Positions 42,257-46,302 of a stretch of 64,000 bases of DNA are shown one piece after another; the stretch's first letter is position 1; each line of letters opens with the position of its first letter. Below the pieces are notes generated by a model. It was not told where the DNA came from and did no database searches. It was given only the letters and a program-made list of their open reading frames with translations. Position numbers and translations under genes: made by a program. The stretch lies in contig CAVQSZ010000021.1 of the NCBI GenBank assembly GCA_963716115.1, positions 36,779 to 100,778 on the forward strand. Reading direction: 5' to 3'. The stretch comes from an uncultured Alphaproteobacteria bacterium. Lineage in GTDB: Bacteria; Pseudomonadota; Alphaproteobacteria; ATCC43930; CGMCC-115725.

Positions 42257-42850
42257 CTATGCGGTCATCGCCGGGCTCGACCCATAGCTGTCCGGTTCGC
42301 AAAAAGCGGTTGCAGAGTTGGCGTCAGACCTCAACCAGTGCTCGTCATGCCCGTGCTTGTCACGGGTATCCACGTCTTCCGGCGCCGGGGCTGGGTCCGT
42401 GGATGGCCGGAACAAGTCCGGCCATGACGATCTTTGGTTGTGGCAGCGATGCGACCTGACCGCGATCCCTACCGCTTCGGCGGCGCGCGCCTCGCTTGCC
42501 CGGATCTCATGTTCCCAAAGGCGCATCACCCGCCATCCGGCGTCCGCGAGCCGGCGGTCGACGCTCGCGTCCCGTTCGATCGTTCGAGCGATCTTTCCGG
42601 CCCAAAAAAGAGCATTGTTCCTCGGCATTACGACGTGTTCGGGGCAACCGTGCCAAAAACATCCGTCGACGAAAACTGCCAGCCGGGCGCCGGGAAAGAC
42701 CAAATCCGGACGGCCGGGAAGCGATGATCCCAGGCGATACCGCATACCTCGCTTCCAAAGCTCTCTTCTGAGCTTGATTTCGGGCCCGGTGTCCCGGCCC
42801 CTGTTCCGCGACATGCAAAAGCTGCGCTGCTCCGGTGTCAGAACGTCCAT
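42257..42850 (-). CDS. vsr: Very-short-patch-repair endonuclease (Vsr) with a repeat-derived C-terminal extension
   Basis: LTPEQRSFCMSRNRGRDTGPE..PGRPDLVFPGARLAVFVDGCFWHGCP..NNALFWAGKI..WRVMRLWEHEI. The core ends near 42445, and the ORF then reads through REP hairpin 42341-42429. Confidence 0.85.
   Translation of the reverse strand: MDVLTPEQRSFCMSRNRGRDTGPEIKLRRELWKRGMRYRLGSSLPGRPDLVFPGARLAVFVDGCFWHGCPEHVVMPRNNALFWAGKIARTIERDASVDRRLADAGWRVMRLWEHEIRASEARAAEAVGIAVRSHRCHNQRSSWPDLFRPSTDPAPAPEDVDTRDKHGHDEHWLRSDANSATAFCEPDSYGSSPAMTA
42341..42429. repeat. REP hairpin (tcgtcatgcccgtgcttgtcacgggtatccacg ... cgtggatggccggaacaagtccggccatgacga)
   Basis: 33-nt imperfect inverted arms around a 23-nt loop. 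Same family as 16713-16808 and 19314-19383. Confidence 0.75.
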
Positions 42851-42864
42851 CGGGCGTCAGCCCC

Positions 42865-43986
42865 TCATTGGTCTTCGTCCTCGGCCGGCGATGCGAGGCC
42901 GATTTCACTTTCGAACTCGATCCCGCTCAGGTCCACAGAAAAGCTGTCCACGGTGACCCCGCTGGCGAGCCCCGCCGTTTGGGCAAGGATTCCCTGCGCA
43001 AAAGACTTCAGGTTCGTGGATATCCGGAGCTTCGCCCCCTGTTCGCCGGCTGCATAAACGCGATAGATCCGATAGGGACCATCGACTTCCGCGGCCATCT
43101 CCCTCAACTCGGACCAGGAGATGTGCACCGGCCTGTCAAACTGGCCTGCGGTGGTTTTGGCGTCGATCCGCTCTTCTGCGCCCTCCATCGGAGAGATGCG
43201 GAAATCCATTGGCGCTACGGCGTTGGCCTCGGACACCCACTCGTACGAGCGGATGAGACCAAGCCTCTTTTGGTGCTCCAGGTGAACCGAGATCAGCTCT
43301 TCGCCCAGGCGGCCTATTTCGTCTGCCTGCTGGCGCGCGCGCCTCAGGGCCTCGATGGAAAGATTGGGCGCCCGCGCACGGCGCAACAGCCGCTCAACAG
43401 CAGAGGGGTTCCCGAGCGCTGCTTCCTGCAGTTCATCGGAAAGCGCGAACCCTGCGAGAGGATGGTCCTCAGCCAGACCAGCGCTCGCCGCGATCTTTCC
43501 GATCAGTTCCTCATCCAAAATTCGCATGGTATCTCGTCCGGAGAAATCGAGTCTCTCAAGTACCGAATGTAGTTTAGAATCTTCGGGGAGCGACCGCGCG
43601 ACAAATAACGCAGTCGCCTTGGAAGGAACTATGGCACCTTCAAAAGACAATATAACGAAGTCATTCGGCAAAAGCGAATTAAATCGATTCGGGTCGCTCC
43701 TAGGATTTTTGACGAGTTCGCCACCTAACTCCCAGTTTCTAGATCGGGCACTTTTGTTAATTTTGCGTTGTAAATTAATCGCCGCCCGAGTGCCGGGGCC
43801 GAATATCCATAAATCCAGGGGTACCCATCTTGTTCCACTTGTCGCCTTTGTAATAGCAGGAAATAGCTTATCCACGAAGACATTTGCGTTCAAATCTATG
43901 GATATCTTACCCCCGTCACTGAGCTGCCAATGGAACAGAGTCAGGTCAGATCTGGTAATTTTCTTCAATGCGAGCTTCGAAATCAT
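42865..43986 (-). CDS. DUF3883-type (PD-(D/E)xK-like) nuclease with an uncharacterised AT-rich N-terminal domain
   Basis: The C-terminal IGRLGEELISVHLE..PMDFRI..ERIDAKTT..YRIYRVY fits the DUF3883 pattern. The N-terminal ~190 aa (MISKLALKKITRSDLTLFHW..) has no family I can name. The gene lies 14 nt upstream of vsr. Confidence 0.65.
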   Translation of the reverse strand: MISKLALKKITRSDLTLFHWQLSDGGKISIDLNANVFVDKLFPAITKATSGTRWVPLDLWIFGPGTRAAINLQRKINKSARSRNWELGGELVKNPRSDPNRFNSLLPNDFVILSFEGAIVPSKATALFVARSLPEDSKLHSVLERLDFSGRDTMRILDEELIGKIAASAGLAEDHPLAGFALSDELQEAALGNPSAVERLLRRARAPNLSIEALRRARQQADEIGRLGEELISVHLEHQKRLGLIRSYEWVSEANAVAPMDFRISPMEGAEERIDAKTTAGQFDRPVHISWSELREMAAEVDGPYRIYRVYAAGEQGAKLRISTNLKSFAQGILAQTAGLASGVTVDSFSVDLSGIEFESEIGLASPAEDEDQ

Positions 43987-44074
43987 CTTCTGTGTACCTC
44001 GGCTTTTCCAGGATTCAGAGGGCTAACCGTTAGGCTTCCGGCTGTAGGTCACTATTCCAGATAGCCTGTGCCGC

Positions 44075-44971
44075 CTATCCCTTGAAAACTGTCTCTCGAT
44101 GAAACTGAAGAAATTGTGGATGTGGCCGGAGTTCGAGCCGGGCCGGCAGCCTCAGCTTACCGCCTGGGTTCACGAGTTGGTGGACGGGTTCCGGAACGCG
44201 ATCCGGAGCCATGAGTATGGTGTAGTCATCATCAAGTGACAGGAGGCCGCGGTCGAACATCCAGTGGACTGTACCGCACAAGGCGAGGCCGTTTCGGACA
44301 GAATCCGGTCCCGAGGCGGATATCGGGCGAATATGTGCAGCCTGCACTTCCGATCGGCCCCCTCCGTTGAGAATCTTCAACCCGGTAACTGCGCAGGTGT
44401 TCGCATACGCGGACTTTACCGCGCCTGCAAAGGCGGCATCTCGGAAGGGCCGGGAGGCGACGCGCTCAACAATCGGGCGGTCAAACGTCGCCGGCTCGTC
44501 CGCGAAGCCCGGAAATTCTAGGGTAACAACAGGCGCAGGTGCTATAAGCGCCTCAAATCCGGCTCTCAATATCAAGTCAAATTCGGCATCCGTGATAACA
44601 CGCACCGCGCGACCGAACGCCCCTTTGCTGGTCCCGCCATCGGCACGCCGTAGGCCGGCCTCGTAGTAAAAGTCGTCATCCCTGAATGGCACCGGCCGGT
44701 CGAATTCCAAGAAGTCTGAGACGAGCGCATAGAAGTGATCTGGGTTCTCTGCATCGGGCCGAATTGACCCCACGCGCGCGGCAGCAAAGTAAGCTTGGCG
44801 ACCGCCGCGGCTGCTCGGGTTACGGCTCGGCCTCCGGGGTTCGTAATAGATGATCCAGTCCCCGACCGCTGCCTCGACCTGACGTAGGTACGTCCGGGGA
44901 AAGTGATAACGAAATTCCGGCAAATCGTCGTAGGTGGGTTCCGCTTTTGTGGTGAAGACGGCCTTGCTCAC
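44075..44971 (-). CDS. HNH_2-type endonuclease fused to a PUA/EVE-like N-terminal domain (candidate modification-dependent restriction enzyme)
   Basis: The C-terminal CAVTG..VQAAHIRP..RNGLALCGTVHWMFDRGLLSL is the HNH_2 motif. The N-terminal YHFPRTYL..GDWIIYYEPRR..GRQAYFAAARVGSIRPD is a beta-barrel reader-like pattern. Confidence 0.65.
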   Translation of the reverse strand: MSKAVFTTKAEPTYDDLPEFRYHFPRTYLRQVEAAVGDWIIYYEPRRPSRNPSSRGGRQAYFAAARVGSIRPDAENPDHFYALVSDFLEFDRPVPFRDDDFYYEAGLRRADGGTSKGAFGRAVRVITDAEFDLILRAGFEALIAPAPVVTLEFPGFADEPATFDRPIVERVASRPFRDAAFAGAVKSAYANTCAVTGLKILNGGGRSEVQAAHIRPISASGPDSVRNGLALCGTVHWMFDRGLLSLDDDYTILMAPDRVPEPVHQLVNPGGKLRLPARLELRPHPQFLQFHRETVFKG

Positions 44972-45046
44972 AGAACCGGTCGCTCCCTGGAGGAGATTGG
45001 GTTCTCGAAATTCCGGACGCAGGAGATCATAGACAAAGACGACATG

Positions 45047-45271
45047 TCAGCATTGATCTGAGGATACCAGTCCCTTATTGCGCTGGCTACGGTTGAGGTC
45101 GGCTTCGGTTTCCGCCTCGGACGGATGCGGCATTTCGGCTACGTCCGCCCAATGCCCCCGCACTGCCGCCGCGAAGGTTTGCACCTCGCCGGCGCCGAGG
45201 CCGCGGTATCGGGACATTTCCCGGATGCCGTCTTCGAGGAAATACCGGGTGAAGAGCCCGCCGCGCAGCAT
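45047..45271 (-). pseudogene. N-terminal stump (74 codons) of a large restriction-modification enzyme (HSDR_N / type IIG-like leader)
   Basis: GLFTRYFLEDGIRE..x..W..SEAETEADL resembles the leader plus (N/S)EAxTE nuclease-motif start of type I HsdR / type IIG enzymes. It is truncated immediately afterwards. Confidence 0.4.
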
Positions 45272-45465: not shown

Positions 45466-45942
45466 CTATTCGGCGTGGCCGGATTGGAGCTGGATGTAGT
45501 TCTCGACGCCGATCTTTTGCATCAGGTCGAGCTGGGTCTCGATGAAGTCGACGTGCTCTTCCTCGGCTTCGAGGATGTCGCTGAACAGATCGCGGGTGAC
45601 GAAGTCGCGCACGCTCTCGGCGTGGGCGATCCCTTCGCGCAGCGCCGGCAGCGCGTTCTGCTCGAGCGACAGGTCGCATTCGAGCGCCTCGCGCACATTT
45701 TCGCCGATCAGCAGCTTGTCGAGCTCCTGCAGATTGGGCAGGCCGTCGAGAAACAGGATGCGCTCGATCAGCTTGTCGGCGTGCTTCATCTCGTCGACGG
45801 ATTCGGAATATTCATAAGCGCCGAGCTTGGTCACGCCCCAATGACGCAACATGCGGGCATGCAGGAAATACTGGTTGATTGCGGTCAGCTCGTTCTTCAG
45901 GACCGCGTTCAGATGCTGCAAGACAGTCGCGTCGCCGCGCAT
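45466..45942 (-). CDS. bfr: Bacterioferritin
   Basis: MRGDATVLQHLNAVLKNELTAINQYFLHARM..EMKHADKLIERILFLDGLPN..EEEHVDFIETQL. 158 aa. Confidence 0.95.
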   Translation of the reverse strand: MRGDATVLQHLNAVLKNELTAINQYFLHARMLRHWGVTKLGAYEYSESVDEMKHADKLIERILFLDGLPNLQELDKLLIGENVREALECDLSLEQNALPALREGIAHAESVRDFVTRDLFSDILEAEEEHVDFIETQLDLMQKIGVENYIQLQSGHAE

Positions 45943-46013
45943 GGTCGCCTCCCGCGGAATTCACCGGGGATATATTGATCGCGGCAAGCCCCCCGGCAAG
46001 ACCCCTGGGGCCG

Positions 46014-46199
46014 TCAGTCCGCCTCGGACCGCCCGAGCTCGATCGTCTCGCGCAGCAATCGGCACATCAGCGGCGCGCATTTCCCGCAGCTCGGCTTCTT
46101 GCCGAGCCCGTGGTAGATCGCCGCGACCGTGCACCCGTCGCGCTCGACCTGGGCGCGGACGTCGCGGTCGGTGATCGCATTGCAGACGCAGACGTACAT
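46014..46199 (-). CDS. bfd: Bacterioferritin-associated ferredoxin
   Basis: MYVCVCNAITDRDV..GKKPSCGKCAPL is the 2Fe-2S BFD pattern. ATG at 46199. Confidence 0.85.
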   Translation of the reverse strand: MYVCVCNAITDRDVRAQVERDGCTVAAIYHGLGKKPSCGKCAPLMCRLLRETIELGRSEAD

Positions 46200-46222
46200 G
46201 CGCGCCTCATCCCGAGCTGGTC

Positions 46223-46256
46223 TCGCTTTTATAAGCGATTTGCGACCAATTCGCAA
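46223..46256 (-). promoter_or_regulatory. Two adjacent palindromes upstream of bfd (candidate iron-responsive operator / promoter)
   Basis: TCGCTT-TTAT-AAGCGA (46223-46238) and TTGCGA-CCAAT-TCGCAA (46240-46256) lie 24-57 nt upstream of the bfd ATG. The TTATAA core could serve as a -10 element. Confidence 0.35.
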
Positions 46257-46302
46257 TATCACTCGCGCATGGCTGACCCGCGCGGCCCGCGCCGGCCCGG
46301 GG

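Follow-up and report, generated by a model that had tools for sequence, protein, structure and literature searches.

Three co-directional minus-strand genes, here called gene 1 (G1), gene 2 (G2) and vsr (V), form a compact islet within the stretch of DNA under study (the window, 64,000 nucleotides of contig CAVQSZ010000021.1 from an uncultured alphaproteobacterium; Table 1), with gaps of 88 nt between G1 and G2 and of 14 nt between G2 and vsr. They encode, respectively, a predicted HNH nuclease of type IV-like architecture, a predicted restriction enzyme with a B3-like DNA reader, and a Vsr T:G mismatch endonuclease. A preliminary description, made from the sequence alone, had proposed these genes as an undescribed defence module; its open reading frames (ORFs), their coordinates and spacing, and all the peptide motifs it quoted were recovered, but the notion of a module unrelated to known systems was not borne out. 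Comparison with related loci instead indicates that the islet, a cassette gained by horizontal transfer, descends from a type II 5-methylcytosine (m5C) operon of methylase, restriction endonuclease and vsr, and that in the subclade that includes the window G1 sits in the former methylase slot, remnants of the methylase being retained in relatives.

The GC-depressed character noted earlier was confirmed, as the islet is the deepest trough in G+C content of the window: in 1-kb bins, values of 0.542 at 43001-44000 and 0.594 at 44001-45000 compare with 0.61-0.77 in the rest, where the next lowest bin stands at 0.614. Whilst the ORFs that had led to an assigned extent of 42257-45271 do exist, blastn homology with related cassettes (L004 and L108) is confined to window positions 42459/42498 to 45058/45061, and the islet (~42459-45061) is therefore some 2.6 kb long.

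Table 1. Features of the islet and its borders (positions in the window).
Feature	Coordinates	Strand	Basis and remarks
Gene 1 (G1)	44075..44971	-	298 aa, GTG start; ORF
Gene 2 (G2)	42865..43986	-	373 aa; ORF
G2 aa 1-150, predicted B3-like DNA-binding pseudobarrel reader, 'H-type' allele	43537..43986	-	AlphaFold2 pLDDT 86, Foldseek, alignment
G2 aa 205-373, predicted PD-(D/E)xK nuclease, NOV_C/DUF3883 type	42865..43374	-	Pfam, PADLOC, Foldseek, C-domain tree
Gene 3 (vsr, V) ORF	42257..42850	-	197 aa; ORF
Vsr T:G mismatch endonuclease, aa 1 to ~131, the part homologous to other Vsr	42459..42850	-	TIGR00632, Pfam, homology limit
G1-G2 spacer; methylase 3' end in L004/L108/L097, degenerate past recognition in window	43987..44074	-	Alignment, permutation test
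Conserved ~90-nt leader 5' of G1; left edge of imported cassette	44972..45061	-	blastn limit 45058/45061; leader common to L004/L108 by eye
Read-through tail of vsr ORF into REP-like palindromic element; right islet edge	42257..42458	-	Sequence; homology stops 42459-42498
74-codon N-terminal stump of unnamed gene, cut by cassette	45047..45271	-	ORF; stop codon within cassette leader

The C-terminal part of G1 (aa 193-247) scores 46.9 bits on HNH_2 (PF13391; cut-off 21) and contains the residues C193, H213, N227, H236 and D240, the catalytic residues (H213, N227 and H236 by name) being invariant in 45 homologues. The sequence matches of this domain in the PDB are TagI (6ghs, 1.8e-6) and VcaM4I (6yex), and the PT-DNA_restrict model also covers the C-terminal part only. 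For the N-terminal domain (~145 aa), sequence and profile searches against Pfam and PDB returned nothing but spurious beta-propeller matches; since sequence profiles match nothing, the PUA/EVE-like assignment, which the preliminary description had read from a beta-barrel pattern, stands at the level of predicted fold and found no counterpart in the sequence searches. The AlphaFold2 model of G1 has a mean predicted local distance difference test score (pLDDT) of 62 overall, rising to about 80-90 across the greater part of aa 1-100; with this model, Foldseek aligned the N-terminal domain with VcaM4I (5.9e-5), SmaMcrB-N (probability 1.0), and the Mmi1 YTH domain and PH1033 (probability 0.96-0.98). 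A HMMER search of the same domain against 1.84 billion representatives gave 917 matches, nearly all of them HNH fusions of ~300 aa or fragments, with no alternative architecture and, in the few longer proteins, weak helix-turn-helix matches only. On the modelled structure, G1 would thus have the type IV modification-dependent plan claimed for it earlier, i.e. a PUA-like sensor joined to an HNH nuclease, as in VcaM4I. The family exceeds 7,200 homologues of ~298 aa, which are mostly solitary and located in integrative and conjugative elements and toxin-antitoxin islands.

The N-terminal domain of G2 had previously been left without a family. It has no Pfam match at E<=0.1 and is assigned by fold only, its model pointing to a nucleic-acid reader of the B3-like pseudobarrel type: Foldseek matched the C-terminal domain of BfiI (2c1l and 3zi5, with E of 2.8e-5 and 6.5e-5 and a target template-modelling score of 0.54 for 3zi5) and also the B3 domain of plant VAL1 (6j9a, probability 0.96). 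The DUF3883 / PD-(D/E)xK core proposed for the remainder of the protein was upheld by a match to NOV_C/DUF3883 (PF13020) at aa 241-317 that is barely above threshold (22.6 bits against 22.1) and by a predicted fold similar to the Hjc resolvase (2wcw, Foldseek probability 0.99). Putative catalytic residues are E229, D261, D275 (D or E across the family) and K277, which are invariant in homologues. The public annotation of G2 (P0131) is a protein of 220 aa from Met154, so that the whole B3-like reader is omitted; the 373-aa frame itself runs uninterrupted over its full length, and homologues preserve it. A search for a strongly avoided palindrome as a G2 target found only CTAG and a mild depletion of ACCGGT (5 observed, 17.7 expected) and was uninformative.

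The identification of gene 3 as a canonical Vsr endonuclease holds for its homologous part, which scores 128.7 bits on TIGR00632, where the cut-off is 97.85 (aa 1-115, on a profile of 119 positions), and matches Pfam Vsr (PF03852) at 2.7e-28. It does not extend to the whole ORF, as the native stop codon has been lost in the window and the last ~65 codons are read-through into a repetitive extragenic palindromic (REP)-like element. As the preliminary description had stated, no C5-methyltransferase is detectable in the 64-kb window, tblastn with the methylases of two related loci (L107 and L099) and the methylase fragment of a third (L108) giving a best E of 0.45. Given this absence and that of any spacer remnant, the locus is not a restriction-modification (R-M) system as it stands. 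Nor did PADLOC-DB v2 match any named defence system, again in line with the earlier statement; the only matches were to single genes, namely generic HNH/REase_II, the TmtA C-terminus and PDC-S36 (both with the G2 nuclease domain), and Vsr.

The ancestry of the islet is read from the neighbourhoods of G2 homologues. A scan of one genome per species, in ~186,000 species-representative genomes, yielded 125 confirmed loci; the family is thus small, but spread over Proteobacteria, Chloroflexota, Acidobacteriota, Planctomycetota, Cyanobacteria, Bacteroidota and Bacillota. Metagenomes scanned with a single G2 protein as query gave no match, and with a G2 alignment as query 13 loci. Neighbours were counted, by ORF clustering, in the best 80 of the 125 loci, and a C5-methyltransferase of ~500 aa (PF00145; motifs GGPPCQAF and ENV) directly adjoins the G2 homologue in 75 of these, vsr in 62. 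Denoting the methylase as M, the G2-type restriction endonuclease as R, vsr as V and the G1-type HNH gene as H, the commonest order is M>R>V, and the same pair of methylase and DUF3883 protein occurs on an annotated Azospirillum plasmid. Because methylase and vsr adjoin its homologues, we take G2 to be R in a type II m5C R-M-Vsr operon that is so far unannotated.

The methylase-less order H-R-V, i.e. G1-G2-V, is found in at least seven distinct sequences and at least three chromosomal contexts (the window; L004 and L005, both metagenome-assembled genomes of Stellaceae; L097/098; L101/102; L103; and L108), and the closest relatives of G2 include ordinary M-R-V loci (L107, 69% identical, L084, L099/100 and L086). 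The linkage of the two nuclease genes to each other and to vsr is accordingly real for this trio, but not general, G1 being mostly found elsewhere and G2 normally with a methylase. One chromosomal site is occupied by M-R-V in L099 and by H-R-V in L101 and L103, with a flanking aldehyde dehydrogenase that is 86% identical. Traces of the methylase persist in several cassettes: the first 191 methylase codons, which span motifs I-VI and share 70% identity with the L107 methylase, lie directly 5' of G1 in L108, a motif-I remnant is kept in L005, and the stretch between G1 and G2 in L004, L108 and L097 can be aligned to the 3' end of the methylase gene (motif X, GNAVPPLMAKA). When spacers were compared with methylase 3' ends in a permutation test, p was <0.001 for L004 and 0-0.04 for L097; in the window itself neither this test (p>0.05) nor tblastn detected a methylase remnant.

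Substitution rates indicate that G1, G2 and vsr are all under purifying selection in methylase-less cassettes. Between L101 and L103, dN/dS was 0.10 for G1, 0.13 for G2 and 0.14 for vsr, and between L004 and L108 the corresponding values were 0.10, 0.20 and 0.12; over methylase-less pairs, G2 gave 0.13-0.20 in both of its domains and vsr 0.09-0.14, at dS of 0.45-1.8. Conservation of G2 differs between its two halves according to the company that it keeps. There are 53 alignment columns conserved at >=90% in the 80 M-linked G2 proteins, and in H-linked proteins ten of these show relaxed conservation (L10, T16, Q27, K28, N31, K78, K83, N84, R86 and G89), all within aa 10-31 and 78-89, whereas the nuclease-domain columns among the 53 are all still conserved. 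Substitutions at such columns in the window protein are Q27K, K28I, N31D, K83R and R86E; position 83 is never K in H-linked proteins, and in the alignment M-linked G2 of the same close clade retain the reader residues. In BfiI-C and EcoRII-N, the N-arm and C-arm are the base-reading elements of B3-like domains (PMC3973309), and the ten relaxed columns would correspond to these arms (helix-loop-strand and strand-loop-strand) when mapped by fold position rather than by residue-level superposition.

The two halves of G2 also appear to have separate histories. H-linked pairs have a ratio of N- to C-domain divergence of 1.22, against 0.72 for M-linked pairs at a comparable distance, and the N-domain is the more diverged in 9% of M-linked and 86% of H-linked pairs, a difference for which any p-value is nominal because the pairs are not independent. 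In a tree of the N-domain (aa 1-130), H-linked proteins form one clade with a bootstrap of 70, and alternative groupings receive 0%. The C-domain tree (aa 205-373), in contrast, joins the window to M-linked L107 (100%) and H-linked P0128 to M-linked L099 (99%), and gives an H clade 0%. A neighbour-joining tree of G1, made without bootstrap, is broadly congruent with that of the G2 N-domain. Since the G2 domain trees disagree, and that of G1 follows the N-domain, the moving unit is G1 plus the reader half of G2, replacing the methylase together with the ancestral reader half; the comparisons show that G1 and the 5' reader half of G2 are co-inherited, and recombine into M-R-V loci with a breakpoint inside G2.

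Relatives of G1 are met beside C5-methylases in other settings too. In L104/105, the start and motif I of an unrelated C5-methylase beside a Z1-DUF4420-AIPR cluster have given way to a relative that is 81% identical; this cluster (L104/L105, 1-6833) is apparently intact, and makes a second case of restriction-like genes outliving a methylase. In L109, a relative 64% identical to G1 is flanked on one side by a truncated vsr and on the other by a methylase of the L104/105 type, which is frameshifted and lacks motifs I-III. Elsewhere the methylase survives: L106 has a G1-like gene beside vsr with a C5-methylase nearby, counted here as intact because its frame is open over 417 codons. On plasmid pOT10-1 of Roseomonas sp. 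OT10 (L119, 3378-5912), vsr is followed by a protein of 340 aa, with a PD...ExK-like motif, no Pfam match and no likeness to G2, and then by a G1-like HNH gene (42% identical), with an apparently intact C5-methylase 4 kb away behind an IS5; the three genes may be a comparable trio that lacks a methylase and is built from a different restriction enzyme. Decayed loci were seen as well, i.e. an M-R-V locus in which G2 is frameshifted near aa 138 (L038, 10001-11129), and a set of G1-like HNH gene (45% identical to G1), G2 homologue and vsr with premature stops in both nuclease genes (L094, 99-2329). Lutz et al. reported DNA methylase ORFs within 3 kb of <6% of PUA-nuclease genes; for close relatives of G1 the association looks higher, in the small sample available here.

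All three genes belong to kinds already known, G1 being a type IV PUA-HNH-like nuclease, G2 a type II restriction enzyme with a B3 reader, and the third Vsr. PUA-HNH enzymes are modification-dependent (PMC6765204, PMC7897488), and G1 would share with the EVE-HNH enzymes VcaM4I and TspA15I and the SRA-HNH enzymes TagI and ScoA3IV (PMC7897488, PMC6765204) the arrangement of an N-terminal PUA-like sensor and a C-terminal HNH_2 domain in ~300 aa; TagI and VcaM4I are its best sequence matches in the PDB, VcaM4I its best fold match, and all are encoded without a cognate methylase. Unlike them, G1 has an N-terminal domain without sequence similarity to EVE, SRA or YTH profiles, and, unlike PUA-HNH genes generally, its close relatives are often beside or inside C5-methylase and vsr loci. 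G2 has the pseudobarrel of BfiI-C and EcoRII-N and a separate cleavage domain in common with the B3-reader enzymes EcoRII, BfiI, UbaLAI and NgoAVII (PMC3973309, PMC2770665, PMC5766183, PMC4267654), and resembles m5C R-M operons with linked Vsr in that a PF00145 methylase and vsr adjoin in most genomes. It differs in its nuclease, which is of DUF3883/NOV_C type and not EcoRII-C, PLD or MvaI-like, and its family is annotated merely as 'DUF3883 domain-containing' or hypothetical; the window departs further from such operons in lacking the methylase that defines them and in the divergence of its reader arms.

Methylases are known to come into conflict with methyl-dependent nucleases, e.g. McrBC against R-M systems (PMC2993543) and PcaRCI against PcaRCII (PMC8989522), and type IV genes inserted in R-M gene complexes have been noted before (PMC2993543). 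The cassette would resemble these cases in that a methylase and a nuclease of modification-dependent type compete for one genome. However, the conflict, if it was one, ended here by physical replacement of the methylase, not by cell death or promoter silencing, and the orphaned restriction gene was kept and remodelled, not lost. A further parallel is Caulobacter VsrA/ScmA (PMC12907096), where, as in the islet, vsr lies without an adjacent C5-methylase in a genome of alphaproteobacterial type; the Caulobacter partner methylase is known and lies elsewhere in the genome, whereas no partner is visible for the islet and its vsr is part of an R-V unit. Our literature search found no report of a type II methylase gene physically replaced by a type IV-type gene, of long-term retention and remodelling of an orphaned restriction gene, or of a nuclease gene co-transferred with a new reader half.

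Descent from an M-R-V operon, with G1 in place of the methylase, is shown by the comparisons above; on balance, we consider it somewhat probable that the islet is a methylase-free two-nuclease cassette in which the reader of G2 has been re-targeted. G1 would cut incoming DNA that carries a modified base, most likely a modified cytosine, and a nuclease so directed would be incompatible with C5-methylases and would therefore displace them. With its reader re-targeted, G2 would spare the unmethylated ancestral sites of the host whilst its nuclease remained active on another target; Vsr may be kept to repair T:G mismatches where unlinked enzymes methylate the DNA, or because R and V were inherited as a unit; and the cassette would act as a methylase-free barrier of two nucleases. 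The broader proposition that G1-family genes are methylase-displacing elements, which spread by homologous replacement of C5-methyltransferase genes and here carry a re-targeted reader half with them, we put forward only tentatively, as possible rather than likely.

The main rival to this two-nuclease reading is that G2 and Vsr still make up a type II R-V pair of the usual sort, shielded by a cognate C5-methylase that is encoded elsewhere in the genome and acts in trans, with G1 an unrelated solitary type IV enzyme (directed e.g. at 5-hydroxymethylcytosine (5hmC) or N6-methyladenine (6mA)) that chanced to land in a methylase gene already redundant. Intact R and V genes, both kept by purifying selection, are what a working R-M system with such a methylase would show, and the repair role of Vsr requires 5-methylcytosine (5mC) in the genome; unlinked pairs of Vsr and C5-methylase exist in Alphaproteobacteria, where Vsr is harmful without methylation (PMC12907096), ScoA3V offers the example of a PUA-HNH enzyme that can be 6mA-directed, and G1 relatives do lie beside intact C5-methylases in L106 and L119. 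An unchanged specificity, on the other hand, predicts reader arms as conserved as in the 80 M-linked relatives, and the arms have instead changed, in methylase-less loci only; across recombination events G1 is inherited together with the H-type reader half, relatives of G1 repeatedly truncate C5-methylases of two unrelated families, which would be rare by chance insertion, and there is no C5-methylase within the 64-kb window. Taking these together, we regard protection in trans as a rather unlikely explanation.

Two further explanations were weighed, one crediting the trio with more cooperation and the other with less function. The constant gene order, the tight spacing, the recurrence of the unit in at least three genomic contexts, selection on all three genes and the co-inheritance of G1 with the G2 reader half would suit a dedicated three-component system, in which G1, G2 and Vsr act jointly or in sequence on one substrate (e.g. 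G1, on sensing a modified base, makes a nick and G2, Vsr or both finish the break), as would the finding that G1-like genes adjoin vsr in four independent arrangements (H-R-V, L106, L109 and L119). We nevertheless hold such a system to be improbable, given that most G1 homologues are solitary and most G2 homologues are paired with a methylase and have no G1, that descent from M-R-V fully accounts for the R-V linkage, that joint action of the proteins is a supposition, and that the G2 C-domain and Vsr have been exchanged freely with M-linked loci, which argues against tight co-adaptation with G1. As to function, G2 and vsr might be inactive relics left by the loss of the methylase, with G1 alone functional: the window vsr runs into the REP-like element without its native stop, public annotation gives G2 as 220 aa only, and the decayed examples L094 and L038 exist. 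Full-length ORFs in at least seven diverged cassettes and the retention of all catalytic residues contradict this, and because of the low dN/dS of both genes at such dS we reject it as very improbable.

Several observations nonetheless weigh against the two-nuclease reading that we prefer. Since the window lacks a methylase remnant, its own history is reconstructed from relatives; the methylase search spans 64 kb, and a cognate methylase elsewhere in the genome is possible. The nuclease activities of G1 and G2 are predictions from sequence and fold, the PUA/EVE call for G1 being made by fold from a model of the modest mean confidence given above, and PUA-HNH enzymes can also be stimulated by 6mA, ScoA3V being an example. 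The apparent coexistence of G1 relatives with intact C5-methylases in L106 and L119 argues against a context-free, 5mC-dependent activity of G1. Bootstrap support for the H-type N-domain clade is only moderate, at 57-70%, no strongly avoided palindrome marks a site tolerated under G2, and a methylation-free host does not account for the retention of Vsr.

R-M systems are thought to be addictive, in that a cell which loses the methylase should be killed by the restriction enzyme left behind. In the lineage of the islet a nuclease of opposite logic has overwritten the methylase and the restriction gene has been kept for long, the relaxed conserved columns being confined to the predicted DNA-reading arms. 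If correct, this would provide a concrete route, open to test, for the replacement of type IV and type II systems by one another at a single locus, a natural experiment in the re-targeting of a B3-type restriction enzyme, and a reason to seek methylase stumps beside solitary type IV genes when defence islands are annotated. Were G1-family genes methylase-displacing as well, a methylating R-M locus would become a methylation-intolerant two-nuclease locus in one step; such overwriting of one defence system by another would be previously undescribed, and would present a natural case of a restriction enzyme that changes or loses its methylation-sensitive target after the loss of its methylase. The comparison also identifies, by homology and predicted fold, an unannotated and widespread restriction-enzyme family of B3-like reader and DUF3883 nuclease, with its partner methylase and Vsr.

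At the borders of the cassette, the leader 5' of G1 shows no sigma-70 consensus over 44972-45061, and promoter and terminator scans across the islet were uninformative. The in-frame translation of the leader, YDLL-R/H-P/Q-EFREPNLL, is kept in the window, L004 and L108, with no start codon there in the window; the leader may have a regulatory role or may encode an alternative N-terminus, and the proteins P0002 and P0007 are 325 aa long. On the opposite side, the REP-like element holds two hairpins, catggccggacttgttccggccatcc and acccgtgacaagcacgggca, and because it coincides with the end of cassette homology it may be a recombination or insertion site.

Beyond the leader, the 74-codon ORF that had been described as the stump of an R-M enzyme exists, its last four codons and stop falling inside the cassette, and it may plausibly derive from an R-M gene. 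It has a PD-(D/E)xK-like 'SEAETE' motif; it is not methylase-like, contrary to the earlier description, and the idea of a C5-methylase fragment was rejected. It matched nothing in Pfam, NCBIfam, PADLOC or PHROG and no plasmid, and no full-length relative was recovered. Its homologues number only six, all short fragments with a common 'SEAETEAEFIFPVLGLLGW' motif, and the family (including P0202-P0206) is seen only as fragments of 74-106 aa, with the motifs MLRGGLFTRYF and PHPSEAETEAEFIFPVLGLLGW. The flanks are ordinary, as had been noted: Pfam matches confirm an SDR gene (PF13561/PF00106) and bacterioferritin (PF00210), the latter with Bfd (PF04324) alongside, and the suggestion of an inserted islet is borne out in the form of the acquired cassette. 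The bfr gene and its Bfd-like [2Fe-2S] ferredoxin partner form an ordinary pair directly past the islet, at window positions 45466-46262.

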